Below, piece after piece: positions 1 through 4,694 of a DNA stretch of 32,977 nt. A program made the position numbers and the translations under genes. Below the pieces are notes generated by a model. It did no database searches and was not told the origin of the DNA. It saw only the letters and a program-made list of their open reading frames with translations. Source of the DNA: a virus. Its lineage: Duplodnaviria; Heunggongvirae; Uroviricota; Caudoviricetes. The stretch covers positions 1-32,977 of IMG/VR virus record IMGVR_UViG_2713896908_000011; one strand, 5' to 3'. Positions within the stretch are counted from its first letter, which is position 1. Each line of letters begins with the position of its first letter.

Positions 1-123
1 CAGGTTGGAATTCAGCCCGGCAGGCGCTCGCTGGGAATAGCCATCACCAAAGCGCACCTTTCTTACAGAAGGGGCCGAAGCCACATCCATACCGGGTTTC
101 ACTTTCCAGCGGAAGGTTTTCAT
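1..123 (-). CDS. M: minor tail protein M, 5' part only (gene continues past the window start)
   Basis: Reverse complement of 1..123 translates MKTFRWKVKPGMDVASAPSVRKVRFGDGYSQRAPAGLNSNL, which matches the N-terminus of lambda gpM as I recall it. ATG at 123..121 overlaps the TGA stop of the tape measure gene (ATGA overlap). Absent from the ORF track because it is truncated. Confidence 0.8.
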   Translation of the reverse strand, partial: MKTFRWKVKPGMDVASAPSVRKVRFGDGYSQRAPAGLNSNL

Positions 124-3100
124 CGTCCACCTCCGGAGAACAGGCCACCATCACGCATCTGTGTCTGAATTTCATCACGGGCACCCTTGCGGGCCATGTC
201 ATACACCGCCTTCAGAGCAGCCGGACCTATCTGCCCGTTCGTGCCGTCGTTGTTAATCACCACATGGTTATTCTGCTCAAACATCGCCATACCTGAACCA
301 CCAATATTTGCCACAACCCCCAGCTTACCGTCAGCACCACGGCGCAGTGGCAGAATGGCTTCAGGTCCCGCTTCCCCCATCACACCCGCGCCTTTTGCAA
401 AAGCAAAAAACGTCGGTCGGTTAACCACCGTGCCGCTGTAGCGACTCAAATCAGCCGACTGATAAACGCCACCATCAGCATTGGGCGTCACACTGGCAGC
501 GGCAGCACTCCCCCAGCCAAACGCCGAACCAATCCCCTTCACCGCCTGCATCATGGCCATCTGCGCCATAATTTTTGCCAGATCGGAAAGGAGTGAGGCG
601 GTAAAAGATTTGAAGTTCAGTTTTCCGGTGGTACAGAAGGTCGCCAGTGCATTACCAGCACTGTTAAATGCCGCTGTAAGCATCTGCTCAGCAGTGCCTG
701 CCGCATTATCCGCATCTGCCGTGAAATTCTGAAACGCCCGCATGGCACCGTTTTTCCAGTTACCCTGAGCAATTTCAAGCTGTTGCCAGTAACGGCGATT
801 CTCATTCAGTTGTCGGTTCAGGCTCTCCGTCAGCGCCTGCTCGGCCTTTCTGTAGTCATCCGTGTTATATGTCCCTTTCTGCTCACTATCCCGCCTCAAC
901 TGCTCCAGCTGTTGCTGGTATTTCTGGCGAAGACTCAGTTGTACCTGATATCGCTGCCGCTGCTGATCACCCATACCCACCGTGGCGATATCCAGGTCAT
1001 GTTGCTGACGCTGAGCGCGCTCTTCTTCAGCCAGTTGACTGGTCAGCTGAATTGTTTTTTTCTTCAGATCGTTGAGTGCCGTCTGTTTCTGAAGCTCCTG
1101 CTGTTTTACATCCAGCAGCGTCAGTGCCTGAATCAGTTCATCTTTACTGGCCAGCACACTCTTTTCATCTGCCGTCAGTTTTTTCCCGTCCAGATCGCTG
1201 ATGCGCTGCTGCAGAGCCAGAAGCTGTTTATGCGCTTCTGTCATCCTGTCAGTGGCAATGCCTGCTGACTGTCTTACAGCAGCAATCTGTCCTTCCACCT
1301 GTGCCTGTTGCTGGCTGTACTGCAGCAATAACCGGGTGGCCTCATCATTACGGGTTTCGCGTGTTTTTTTCTTACCGGATGCCAGGGCTTTCTCGTAACG
1401 TTCATTTTCACGTTGTATCGCCGCATCCCTGACAGCCTGATCGGCGTACTGCATGGCATTAATACGCGCAATTTCACGCTGATGTCGTGCTGCTTCCGTT
1501 TCATTCATCCGGTTCAGTGCAGCATTTTCAGCATTACGGCGTTTCTGTTGCTCCTGATAATTCCGCTCTGCCTGCTCTTTTGCATCCTGCAAATCCTTCT
1601 GGCGTTTTTTCTCCTGAAGATCGTTAAGACGCTGCTGATCGTATTCAACCTGAGAAGATGATGCCGTCCAGGGGAGTCTTTTCGCCCGCGACACTTTCTC
1701 CTGCAAAGTGGCAATCTGCGCATCCAGCGAGTCTTCACGACCAATATTCATGGCCGCATCCCAGAACTGCTTCCACCAGTCAGACAAGGTTTGCAGCGTA
1801 CTACCCAGCGCATTGAGGTTATTATCAATATCCGCAGTACGCCGACCGGTTTCCTCTGCCAGTGCAGACATGGCTATCCGTGCCGCATCACTGGACCGCC
1901 CCTGCTCTCCAAGGACGCGTATCTGCTCAAGCTGAGTGGCAGTAAGAAAATGCAGCTCATTGTCCAGAGACTTCGCGGCATTTACAGGATCATCCTTCAG
2001 CCGCTTAAACTGATTTATGGTATCGCTGACCGACTGGCCAACCGATCGCTCCATCTGTGCGGCAGCTCTCGCCACCATACCGATATCGTTTCCACGAAAT
2101 GCACCACTCCCCACCACCTGAGCAAGCGCACCGGCTGCAGCATGTTGCGTGATACCATTCCCGGAAATAGCACGACTGAGCGTCCACAGCTGCCCGGCAG
2201 TGACTCCGGCATAATGCCCCGTCAGCGACAGCTGGCGGTTAAATTCTTCCCCCTCCTTCTGACCGTCATACCAGGCTTTACCCAGACCATAGACAGCCGC
2301 GGCAATACCGCCAATAACCGCTCCTGGCATCATGCCTTTCGGTGACATCAGTGTGTCTATCCATCCGGCACGGTTAGCCAGCGTTATCCCGGATCCCCTC
2401 AGCGCCCCTAAATTGCCGCGGGCCAGTTCACCTATCAGAACGCCTATCTCCTGGCGGGCTGCTGCACTTTTCAGACCCAGCGAATGCGTGGCTTTTCCTG
2501 CCTGCTCCATTTTGCGGATATACACTTCTGCAGCACTGCTTACCCCCAGCTGGGCTGCCTTAGCACGAAGCAACTCAGAAGATGAAAGATTCTGGCGGGT
2601 TGCCTGCTCTTTAAGCTGACGGATAAACGCCACTTTCTGTCGGGTAGCCTCTTCCTCAGCCTGTGTAAGAACACGGGTTTTCGCAGTAACCTCAGAAATC
2701 AGCGCCAGATAATCCTGCTGGCCAATCCCGCCACTGTTTCTGGCCTGTCGGATCTGCTGCTGAATACGCTGTAATTCCTGCAGCCCCGCACTGGCCTGTT
2801 TCACACTGTCAATCTGACGATAAAACGCAGCAACCGCTTTATCCTGAGCCTCCGCCAGAGCCATGGCCTGCGCCTGTTCCTCGCGCATTTTCTGGCTCAG
2901 TGCCTCCATACGCTGGCGGGTTTGCTCCACCTCGCGGGCCATGCGTTCATGAGCCTGTGCGTTCTTCTCCACCGTCTGCGCATGGACGGATGCGGCTGTT
3001 GCAGCCGAAGACGCCGCCTGCGTTGTCTGCCGGGCGGCCTGAGTCTGACGCTCCATAAAACGCTGCATACGGGCAGAAGACCGTTCTGCATCGCTGGCTG

Positions 3101-3194
3101 CACCATTCAGAAGGTTTTTGATACGGGGAATTTCATTTTTAAACTCTGCCGCATCAATCCCCAAATCAATGACCAGGTTGGCTATCTGGTCCAT
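120..3194 (-). CDS. H: tail tape measure protein (lambda gpH-like)
   Basis: 1034-aa ORF (120..3224), Q/A/R/E-rich and coiled-coil-like, sitting between the G/T chaperone genes and M. Segment MDQIANLVIDLGIDAAEFKNEI resembles the lambda H N-terminus, so start is placed at the internal Met (3194); the track start at 3224 is the alternative. Confidence 0.9.
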   Translation of the reverse strand: MDQIANLVIDLGIDAAEFKNEIPRIKNLLNGAASDAERSSARMQRFMERQTQAARQTTQAASSAATAASVHAQTVEKNAQAHERMAREVEQTRQRMEALSQKMREEQAQAMALAEAQDKAVAAFYRQIDSVKQASAGLQELQRIQQQIRQARNSGGIGQQDYLALISEVTAKTRVLTQAEEEATRQKVAFIRQLKEQATRQNLSSSELLRAKAAQLGVSSAAEVYIRKMEQAGKATHSLGLKSAAARQEIGVLIGELARGNLGALRGSGITLANRAGWIDTLMSPKGMMPGAVIGGIAAAVYGLGKAWYDGQKEGEEFNRQLSLTGHYAGVTAGQLWTLSRAISGNGITQHAAAGALAQVVGSGAFRGNDIGMVARAAAQMERSVGQSVSDTINQFKRLKDDPVNAAKSLDNELHFLTATQLEQIRVLGEQGRSSDAARIAMSALAEETGRRTADIDNNLNALGSTLQTLSDWWKQFWDAAMNIGREDSLDAQIATLQEKVSRAKRLPWTASSSQVEYDQQRLNDLQEKKRQKDLQDAKEQAERNYQEQQKRRNAENAALNRMNETEAARHQREIARINAMQYADQAVRDAAIQRENERYEKALASGKKKTRETRNDEATRLLLQYSQQQAQVEGQIAAVRQSAGIATDRMTEAHKQLLALQQRISDLDGKKLTADEKSVLASKDELIQALTLLDVKQQELQKQTALNDLKKKTIQLTSQLAEEERAQRQQHDLDIATVGMGDQQRQRYQVQLSLRQKYQQQLEQLRRDSEQKGTYNTDDYRKAEQALTESLNRQLNENRRYWQQLEIAQGNWKNGAMRAFQNFTADADNAAGTAEQMLTAAFNSAGNALATFCTTGKLNFKSFTASLLSDLAKIMAQMAMMQAVKGIGSAFGWGSAAAASVTPNADGGVYQSADLSRYSGTVVNRPTFFAFAKGAGVMGEAGPEAILPLRRGADGKLGVVANIGGSGMAMFEQNNHVVINNDGTNGQIGPAALKAVYDMARKGARDEIQTQMRDGGLFSGGGR

Positions 3195-3495
3195 AACGCA
3201 CACCTCCGGAAATACCTTCCCCAAGATGCATCAGTTCTTCGTCCGTTCGCTCCGGTATCCCGTTCTCTTCCGGTAAAAGGCTGAAATCAGCCACCGCAGC
3301 ATCACTGCTGCCGGACACCATTCTCACGATCAATGCCTTCAGCGAGGCAAACTGCGCATCCATCCACACATCACTGAAGCTCTGCATCCGGAAATAATCG
3401 CCCCACTCACCAAGCTCAGTGGCCGACATTTCCGACAGCATCCGCCGCCAGTCTGCCCACCGGAACTCCCGGGCAAGCCGCATGACAAACTGCAT
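3166..3495 (-). CDS. T: tail assembly protein T segment (expressed as G-T fusion by -1 frameshift)
   Basis: 109-aa ORF in the -1 frame relative to G, overlapping the G 3' end and the H 5' end. This is the lambda G/GT arrangement; a slippery-like CCGGAAAAG lies at 3510..3518 just before the G stop. Confidence 0.6.
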   Translation of the reverse strand: MQFVMRLAREFRWADWRRMLSEMSATELGEWGDYFRMQSFSDVWMDAQFASLKALIVRMVSGSSDAAVADFSLLPEENGIPERTDEELMHLGEGISGGVRYGPDSQPGH

Positions 3496-3503
3496 TTCCC
3501 GCG

Positions 3504-3893
3504 TCAGGACTTTTCCGGCGTCAGCACCTCATGCTCCAGATCCCCGGCATTCTCAATGGCACCCATACCGCTCAGCGACAGAACCATCTCCGCCCCCGCT
3601 CCCAGGGCATCATACGACCATGTTGTAATAACGGATGCGCAAAGCGTCTCAACATCCTGAGACTGTTCCGCATTCCACAGTGAGCGGGAAACCAGCCAGG
3701 CATTGATATCCATCCCCATCCGCAGAAAAGCAATCTGTCGTTCAGCCTCCGGCAGTTCTCCCTCTTCGGCATCAAACTTTGCCGTTCGCTGCTGAACAAA
3801 CGCCAGATATTCAATTCTCTGCAGCCCGGACAGCTCACTGAGCACCACGGACTGCTTTTCATAATTAAACGTGCCCTGTTTCAGAAACATCAT
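3504..3893 (-). CDS. G: tail assembly chaperone G
   Basis: Translation from the internal Met (MMFLKQGTFNYEKQSVVLSELSGLQRIEYLA...) parallels lambda gpG as I recall it (MFLKTESFEHNGVTVTLSELSALQRIEHLA...). GGAG Shine-Dalgarno precedes the ATG at 3893; the track ORF extends to 3932 but that stretch holds a terminator hairpin. Confidence 0.8.
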   Translation of the reverse strand: MMFLKQGTFNYEKQSVVLSELSGLQRIEYLAFVQQRTAKFDAEEGELPEAERQIAFLRMGMDINAWLVSRSLWNAEQSQDVETLCASVITTWSYDALGAGAEMVLSLSGMGAIENAGDLEHEVLTPEKS

Positions 3894-3906
3894 GTTCTCC
3901 ACCTGC

Positions 3907-3930
3907 AAAAAAGCCCCGGATAACCGGGGC
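3907..3930 (-). terminator. rho-independent terminator after major tail gene V
   Basis: Perfect hairpin GCCCCGG-ATAA-CCGGGGC (plus 3913..3930); on the minus-strand transcript it is followed by a U6 run (plus A-run 3907..3912). Lies between the V stop (3951) and the G start (3893). Confidence 0.7.
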
Positions 3931-3950: not shown

Positions 3951-4694
3951 TTAACCTGCGGCGCTGACAGCCACCGTAGCCACTGCCACAAAATCGCCGT
4001 CAGAAGTCATGCCCACAATGCTGACACTGCCCTGCTTCACGCCTTTCACCGTGGCCACAAGCCCGTTCAGAGTCACCGTGGCAGTCTGTGGATCTGTCGA
4101 ATGCACACTGATCGCTTTGTCACTGGCTCCGTCAGGTTTTACTGTAAAGGTCAGCGTGGTGGTTGCTCCCACTTTTACACTGGCAGATGCCGGTGCCACC
4201 GTCAGCCCGGTAACGCTCACGGTTTCAGTGCCTTCCTCTGCCAGATACGGACGCCCCACACCGCTGATTTTCACAGTGCGGGTCATCACGTCTTTTGAGG
4301 CAATGGTTTTACCCAGTGAGCTCAGCCAGCCGCGGAAAACATCAACAGTACCGTTGGGATATTTGATACGAAACGCGCAGACTTCACCGGAGTCGAACAA
4401 CTGAACCAGTTTTTTCTGCCCGCTGTCACCCGGACGCCAGGCCAGCGTCGCCGAAGTATCACCAACGGATTTCTGCCCCTGGGTTGTCGTTTTCCAGTCT
4501 GCATCCTCATCATCGAGATAAGTGTCATCTTCTGCATCAGCGGTCATTTCGCCAGGTTGCAGATCCTTCACCATCGCAAGACGCAGCCAGTCAGTGTCCG
4601 ACAAAGGGTTCGCAAACGCATCGCCGTTGCCGGTATACATCCAGAACGTCGTCCCCGCACCTTTCGTCTTTGCCAGTGGATTTGGTGTGGTCAT
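3951..4694 (-). CDS. V: major tail protein V with C-terminal Ig-like (Big_2-type) domain
   Basis: From the internal Met, MTTPNPLAKTKGAGTTFWMYTGNGDAFANPLSDTDW... closely parallels lambda gpV; AAGGAGGTG Shine-Dalgarno precedes the ATG at 4694. The C-terminal T/V/S-rich repeat region looks like the Ig-like domain. Confidence 0.9.
   Translation of the reverse strand: MTTPNPLAKTKGAGTTFWMYTGNGDAFANPLSDTDWLRLAMVKDLQPGEMTADAEDDTYLDDEDADWKTTTQGQKSVGDTSATLAWRPGDSGQKKLVQLFDSGEVCAFRIKYPNGTVDVFRGWLSSLGKTIASKDVMTRTVKISGVGRPYLAEEGTETVSVTGLTVAPASASVKVGATTTLTFTVKPDGASDKAISVHSTDPQTATVTLNGLVATVKGVKQGSVSIVGMTSDGDFVAVATVAVSAAG

Follow-up and report, generated by a model that had tools for sequence, protein, structure and literature searches.

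Is gene T of a lambda-like tail operon translated as a protein of its own, or is it reached from the upstream gene G by a programmed -1 ribosomal frameshift that yields a G-T fusion, as in phage lambda? The question is raised by a stretch of 32,977 nucleotides (the window: positions 1 to 32,977 of IMG/VR virus record IMGVR_UViG_2713896908_000011), in which the 3' end of a gene for a tail assembly chaperone, G, overlaps a second reading frame that encodes a T-like segment. An earlier note, made from the letters alone, had placed a candidate slip site at CCGGAAAAG (3518..3510, minus strand), ahead of the G stop codon, and had likened it to the GGGAAAG of lambda; the coordinates proved to be right. 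From comparison with related sequences, we consider it highly probable (roughly 0.9) that the site is a lambda-type G/GT programmed -1 frameshift, homologous to that of lambda, and the proposed fusion is supported by homology, by gene order and by the position of the site. The evidence for this reading, the explanations that compete with it and the observations that weigh against it are described below.

Overlap of genes G and T

In its own frame, the 3' end of G reads GAG GTG CTG ACG CCG GAA AAG TCC TGA, with the stop codon at 3506..3504. Reading of the T frame, which as the earlier note had it is -1 relative to G, gives TGA GGT GCT GAC GCC GGA AAA GTC CTG ACG CGG GAA ATG CAG. The T frame was also correctly described as open across the G stop: it extends from 3528 past that codon to a TGA at 3168..3166, and no stop interrupts it from the slip site to the T domain. 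It is, however, not free of stops on the other side. The earlier note had seen no T-frame stop upstream of the slip site and had held that such a stop would refute a frameshift, yet a TGA exists at 3531..3529. The refuting argument was mis-stated, because ribosomes that pass this TGA are still in the G frame, and the codon is thus irrelevant to whether a shift occurs. What the TGA does is to confine a productive shift to the 25-nucleotide overlap (Table 1).

Within this overlap G_GAA_AAG is the sole slippery motif, and when the remaining codon pairs were read directly, no other pair was found that permits re-pairing. In-frame A_AAG makes up 0.42% of the codons in the structural genes of this phage, so that chance would place about 0.03 of them among the 7 sense codons of the overlap. 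The heptamer departs from the strict X_XXY_YYZ form, as had been remarked before, and it does so because re-pairing in the P site is near-cognate. The accompanying doubt about the exact position of the slip has largely been removed, in that G_GAA_AAG is present in 45 of 61 homologous junctions and is annotated as the slip site in phage N15.

In the reading that we favor, most ribosomes would translate G to its UGA and release a chaperone of 128 amino acids, and a small fraction would slip back by one nucleotide at G_GAA_AAG. The single Lys-tRNA of Escherichia coli would move from AAG to the better-matched AAA, and Glu-tRNA would move from GAA to GGA with positions 1 and 3 still paired and a G-U pair at position 2. 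Post-shift reading would proceed as GUC CUG ACG CGG GAA AUG... to nucleotide 3166, and the predicted fusion would have 241 amino acids, 127 of them from G and 114 from T. By analogy with lambda (PMC5009743), the fusion would bind the tape measure protein through its G part and recruit the tail tube protein through its T part, and a low ratio of fusion to G would be set by the efficiency of the slip. The AAG-to-AAA move of Lys-tRNA is also that of lambda G/GT and of dnaX (PMC4066793, PMC5009743), no tetramer shifts more readily in E. coli than A_AAG (PMC4066793), and sites of the NNA_AAG type, for example CGA_AAG, are in natural use (PMC5009743).

A second in-frame GAA_AAG occurs at codons 11-12 of G (3861..3855, minus strand), where it is preceded by T (T_GAA_AAG). 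A -1 shift at that position meets a stop within a few codons and would therefore give abortive products only; this copy is probably background.

Homologous G/T junctions

We compared the junction with its homologs in 16 phage records and in 77 loci, the latter retrieved with a G-T fusion profile from bacterial assemblies, one genome per species; removal of duplicates left 61 distinct junctions. Each of the 61 has an A_AAR slip site that lies within the overlap, in frame with G and at a constant position. The form G_GAA_AAG accounts for 45 of these, including this window, Gifsy-1, Gifsy-2, Fels-1, N15, HK225, mEp213 and many prophages of Enterobacterales. The proven site of lambda, G_GGA_AAG, was found in 10 junctions (lambda, phage 21 and Stx2a phages), and A_AAA_AAG in 2 (Stx1 and Stx2d phages); the remaining forms were G_GCA_AAA (2 junctions), A_GAA_AAG (1) and G_GGA_AAA (1). 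Over the 60 nucleotides 3' of the heptamer, 38 diverse sequences could be aligned without a gap, which sets a constant distance between the slip site and T's invariant Leu-Ala-Arg-Glu motif. The check that had been proposed earlier, alignment with lambda G/GT, gave a consistent result at the protein level: fusion proteins built at the slip site for 8 phages, lambda included, are alignable over the junction, and the Lys residue of the slip site is invariant among them.

The 2 junctions with G_GCA_AAA, from Kluyvera (L026) and Ewingella (L028), read CTG GCA AAA TAG, so that the G stop directly follows the slip site. P-site re-pairing is poor in these, and they may represent a pure single-tRNA slip on A_AAA beside a stop codon.

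Some of the loci that were retrieved appear to be misplaced in the assemblies. One lambda-type G/T junction sequence was common to 13 loci (L062-L067, L069-L073 and others), which lie on short contigs of very low coverage assigned to unrelated organisms, namely Neobacillus, Oceanobacillus, Kitasatospora, Chromatium, Shewanella, Leeuwenhoekiella, Paenibacillus and Enterococcus; these look like contamination of the assemblies by lambda DNA and not like prophages. Two loci from metagenome-assembled genomes are likely to be binning errors: L018, from a 'Bacillota bacterium', encodes a G/T protein that is 99% identical to that of this E. coli phage type, and L054, from a 'Geobacteraceae bacterium', has a junction identical to those of Enterobacter loci.

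Selection on the heptamer and the number of tRNAs that would slip

Codon usage at the junctions indicates that the heptamer is under purifying selection. Where the slip site encodes Glu, the codon is GAA in 46 of 46 junctions, compared with 53% of Glu codons in the remainder of these G and T genes, and the Lys codon is AAG in 58 of 61 junctions, compared with 37% elsewhere in those genes. Of 38 Glu-Lys pairs at other positions of G, only 15 are encoded by GAAAAG. The selection extends to the base on the 5' side of GAA, which is G in 45 of the 46 junctions (the background fraction of G-ending codons in the codon families concerned is 31-60%), even though this G is a synonymous base that ends six different codons, CCG, GCG, CTG, TTG, GTG and ACG, which specify five amino acids. 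Among close relatives of the window the heptamer did not vary at all (79 relatives, 54 distinct sequences); the scan of viral contigs from which these were drawn yielded only sequences of 92-100% identity, and hence informs us of invariance and not of diversity.

Identity in the T frame changes abruptly at the same point. Pairwise amino-acid identity in the ten codons before the slip site is 0.09-0.31, and stops are frequent there; at the two codons of the slip site it rises to 0.90 and 1.00, and many columns downstream are conserved, three of them at 1.00. By this pattern, coding constraint on the T frame starts at the slip site and not at the ATG at 3495 that has been taken as the start of T.

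The fixed G at position 1 of the heptamer bears on the one alternative that leaves the frameshift and its product unchanged. On this alternative Lys-tRNA alone moves on A_AAG, whether it occupies the A site or sits in the P site while the A site is empty, Glu-tRNA does not re-pair, and the functional motif is a tetramer and not a heptamer. Such slips have precedents, in that A_AAG tetramers shift alone in E. coli (PMC4066793) and hexanucleotide sites such as CGA_AAG function without cognate re-pairing in the P site (PMC5009743); the single A_GAA_AAG junction and the two G_GCA_AAA junctions have poor P-site re-pairing as well. The first base of the heptamer, however, is held at G across the synonymous positions enumerated above, which is the outcome expected if re-pairing of GAA to GGA matters. 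Furthermore, a second codon of GGA goes with a first base of G, and one of AAA with a first base of A, so that canonical heptamers result. We therefore regard a slip by Lys-tRNA alone as unlikely, and tandem slippage of both tRNAs as the best-supported reading of the conservation.

The start of gene T

The database records of this phage type all assume another arrangement, in which there is no frameshift and T is an ordinary separate gene that starts at ATG 3495, so that G and T are two polypeptides. The ATG opens an open reading frame of 109 amino acids, and the separate gene is so annotated in GenBank records, among them those of mEp460 and Ayreon, by the Prokaryotic Genome Annotation Pipeline (PGAP) and throughout the E. 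coli prophages of RefSeq. A weak G-rich sequence, GGGAA, precedes the ATG and is predicted to bind the anti-Shine-Dalgarno sequence at -4.0 kcal/mol, but it is the only Shine-Dalgarno-like sequence there, and it abuts the ATG with almost no spacer, which leaves no usable ribosome binding site. Conservation also speaks against this start. Of the 61 junctions, 40 have Leu at the position of the ATG, 12 have Arg and only 6 have Met, conservation of the T frame extends upstream of the ATG as far as the slip site and no further, and the match to profile TIGR01715 likewise begins upstream of the Met. Nor would a separate T account for the fixed synonymous positions of the heptamer. On grounds of conservation we rejected an independent start at ATG 3495, which is probably not the start of T, and we consider a separately translated T very improbable. 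Levin, Hendrix and Casjens reportedly observed in 1993 that no free T is made in lambda, and this also counts against a separate T. For lambda, the account in PMC5009743 mentions G and GT products only.

The annotations themselves merit comment. In every GenBank or RefSeq record of this phage type that we examined, G and T are separate, T begins at ATG 3495 or later, and there is no joined coding sequence; among all records examined, a joined G-T coding sequence was present only in that of phage 21 (OL657228). If the fusion is made as proposed, the true product is consequently missing from the protein databases.

Efficient transcriptional slippage requires runs of about 7 or more A. The idea that RNA polymerase drops one A or adds two in the A run, with no slip by the ribosome, can be set aside as having a negligible chance of being correct: the run of four A at the slip site is far below that length, lambda's G_GGA_AAG has only three A, and the preference for AAG over AAA together with the G at base 1 fits tRNA re-pairing instead, despite the use of such slippage by some mobile elements and phages (PMC5009743).

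Search for stimulators and evidence against a frameshift

We searched for RNA elements that could raise the efficiency of the slip. Folding of the segment 3509..3420 gave a z-score of -1.29, and folding of 3560..3450 gave -0.62, neither better than shuffled sequences; when the 60 nucleotides 3' of the slip site were folded for all 61 junctions and compared with shuffles, the mean z-score was -0.03, with 5% of the junctions below -2. A scan of 3300..3700 against Rfam gave no match at E values up to 10, and no stable, conserved stem-loop or pseudoknot of the dnaX type was found 5-9 nucleotides 3' of the shift site. One candidate, a CGCCAG/CUGGCG stem 5 nucleotides downstream of the site, was 68% paired in the 38-sequence alignment, with a few double changes, and is not formed in the window. 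The invariance of T's Leu-Ala codons confounds its signal, and we rejected it as a feature of the family as a whole.

On the 5' side of the heptamer there is a Shine-Dalgarno-like GAGGUG, whose pairing to the anti-Shine-Dalgarno sequence was calculated at -9.2 kcal/mol; the dnaX element came out at -6.3 kcal/mol when calculated in the same way. Stimulation of -1 frameshifting by such elements occurs at spacings of 9-14 nucleotides (PMC5009743), and the spacing here, 8-9 nucleotides, is at the edge of that range. Shine-Dalgarno-like sequences 14-18 nucleotides upstream are modestly enriched in the family (about 25%, versus a background of 10%). The element is polymorphic, with GAGGCG in 27 of 79 close relatives, and at most it would tune the efficiency of the shift in some strains.

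In summary, we found no convincing or conserved RNA stimulator at the slip site, and this result, with the folding data, the Rfam scan and the polymorphism of GAGGUG on which it is based, weighs against the proposed frameshift. Several further points have the same tendency. In reporter assays A_AAG without a stimulator shifted at about 0.15%, barely over background, and 5.6% was reached only with a strong pseudoknot (PMC4066793). Lambda needs the fusion at a low ratio to G, about 1 in 30 (PMC5009743), and the weakness of A_AAG alone, together with the lack of a conserved stimulator, means that the efficiency at this site could fall well below that value. Re-pairing in the P site is non-canonical, in that the move from GAA to GGA leaves a G-U in the middle position. 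The in-frame ATG at 3495 permits a separate T protein in principle. Finally, literature searches for the literal heptamer and for lambdoid G-T slip sites returned no measurement of G_GAA_AAG, and no proteomic or reporter data on a G-T fusion for this phage group.

Genes and features of the locus

Taken as a whole, the window represents a lambdoid E. coli phage or prophage of the mEp460/cdtI/Ayreon type, and over the structural module it is 95-98% identical to vB_EcoS-569R4, cdtI and phi458. Identity to phi458, Ayreon, cdtI and mEp460 is 97-99% over the 900 bases round the slip site, a stretch that 1847 of the 5426 complete E. coli genomes also contain. All genes of the locus are on the minus strand, in the order tail tube gene V, G, T and tape measure gene H, and their coordinates are collected in Table 1 with those of the other features.

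Table 1. Positions of genes and sequence elements at the G/T locus of the window
Feature	Positions	Strand	Evidence or remark
Major tail tube protein, lambda gpV-like, with C-terminal Ig-like domain	4694..3951	minus	Phage_TTP_12 1.5e-66, Big_2 1.7e-11
Terminator-like hairpin between V and G	3930..3913, then T run (element 3930..3905)	minus	GCCCCGG-TTAT-CCGGGGC + TTTTTT
Gene G, tail assembly chaperone, zero-frame product, 128 amino acids	3890..3504	minus	PF06894 1.8e-39
T-frame TGA, upstream limit for a productive -1 shift	3531..3529	minus	13 nucleotides 5' of heptamer
Shine-Dalgarno-like GAGGUG, possible accessory stimulator	3530..3525	minus	8-9 nucleotides 5' of heptamer
G/T overlap, 25 nucleotides, sole region allowing a productive -1 shift	3528..3504	minus	Frame reading
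Putative slip site G_GAA_AAG	3516..3510	minus	Identical to annotated N15 slippery sequence; same position across homologous junctions
T segment, 114 codons in -1 frame after the shift, plus stop (3168..3166)	3510..3166	minus	PF06223 5.7e-15
ATG taken as start of a separate T gene	3495..3493	minus	mEp460 record, PGAP; probably not the real start
Tape measure protein, lambda gpH-like	3194..120	minus	TMP_2 5.2e-49, Tape_meas_lam_C 6.5e-24

The identities of G and T were clear from their matches to two equivalog models. G scored 190.8 bits against TIGR01674 (phage_lambda_G; cut-off 74.45) over the full length, and T scored 132.3 bits against TIGR01715 (phage_lam_T; cut-off 77.35). For G, RefSeq and PGAP pick the same ATG as the start of gpG, and GGAG lies 6 nucleotides upstream of it. 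The product of V has 247 amino acids, AAGGAGG precedes its ATG, and the limits of the gene agree with those of the V genes annotated in mEp460 and Ayreon. The start of the tape measure gene, an ATG at 3194 that is preceded by GGAGGTG, is identical to the start given by PGAP. This start overlaps the end of T, and thus of GT, by 29 nucleotides (3194..3166), and mEp460 and Gifsy-1 are arranged likewise.

The hairpin between V and G is strong, with 7 G-C pairs; the element is an annotated terminator in Ayreon and mEp460, and N15 has a corresponding one. It could leave G, T and H less transcribed than V, whose product is required at about 200 copies.

Significance

A G/GT frameshift at this locus would be an instance of a known system and not new in kind. 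The lambda event is a textbook case of recoding, the exact heptamer seen here was annotated in N15 more than 20 years ago, and its recognition in the window adds little to the science. The practical point concerns annotation, where T is called as a separate gene in a phage type that is common in E. coli genomes. Somewhat more can be ventured from the comparison of junctions. We suggest tentatively, and rate the chance as slightly short of even, that enterobacterial lambda-like phages mostly use G_GAA_AAG, and not the textbook G_GGA_AAG of lambda, as their G/GT slip site, and that the selected first G implies re-pairing of the P-site Glu-tRNA to GGA by way of a central G-U pair, which would suffice for a useful level of -1 frameshifting with no RNA stimulator. 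If this is true, frameshift predictors that demand a strict X_XXY_YYZ systematically overlook a common natural class. A near-cognate heptamer with a fixed first G is in any case the majority form among the 61 junctions, and offers a clean natural test case for the contribution of P-site re-pairing to -1 frameshifting in E. coli.

Comparison with known systems

The site would share with dnaX (A_AAA_AAG) and with hexanucleotide sites such as that of IS1222 (G_CGA_AAG) the A-site slip of the single Lys-tRNA of E. coli from AAG to AAA, and the window resembles dnaX also in having a Shine-Dalgarno-like sequence upstream at a comparable distance. The dnaX gene is unrelated, however. Its shift depends on a strong, required downstream stem-loop and attains an efficiency of 50%, whereas no such stem is detectable here, and the Shine-Dalgarno-like element of the window is not conserved.

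The Salmonella prophages Gifsy-1, Gifsy-2 and Fels-1 are much closer. Their junctions read ACG/ACA CCG GAA AAG TCC/CCC TGA, their proteins are 54-60% identical to those of the window, and in the records of Gifsy-1 and Gifsy-2, which have the junction CCG GAA AAG TCC TGA, T is described as part of a frameshift hybrid protein. They differ from the window in the host genus, in the acidic G tail that lies upstream of the site and in having no GAGGUG element.

The heptamer of genes 14 and 15 of N15 (AF064539) is likewise GGAAAAG and agrees with that of the window in frame and position, and the record carries on it the feature 'slippery sequence for -1 translational frameshift'. In the group formed by N15, HK225, mEp213 and Eeyore, the codon before GAA is GCG (Ala), whereas it is CCG (Pro) in the window; the G stop of that group lies five codons downstream, protein identity is about 35%, and many of its members have the CGCCAG/CUGGCG stem 5 nucleotides downstream, which the window does not.

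The G/GT system of lambda has been the subject of work by Levin, Hendrix and Casjens (1993) and by Xu, Hendrix and Duda (2004, 2013, 2014; all cited in PMC5009743). The P-site codon is GAA (Glu) in the window and GGA (Gly) in lambda, so that re-pairing leaves a central G-U here in place of a third-position wobble. Between the site and the G stop there is one codon, compared with five in lambda, the overlap is 25 nucleotides instead of 64, the T part has 114 amino acids instead of 144, and protein identity to lambda GT is about 34%. A conserved downstream structure was not found in the family, lambda included. The G and T proteins of the two are homologous, the gene order V-G-T-H is the same, the T frame is -1 and lies over the 3' end of G in both, and the slip site occupies homologous codons, where in each case the A-site codon would change from AAG to AAA and the fusion would be joined at Lys-Val.

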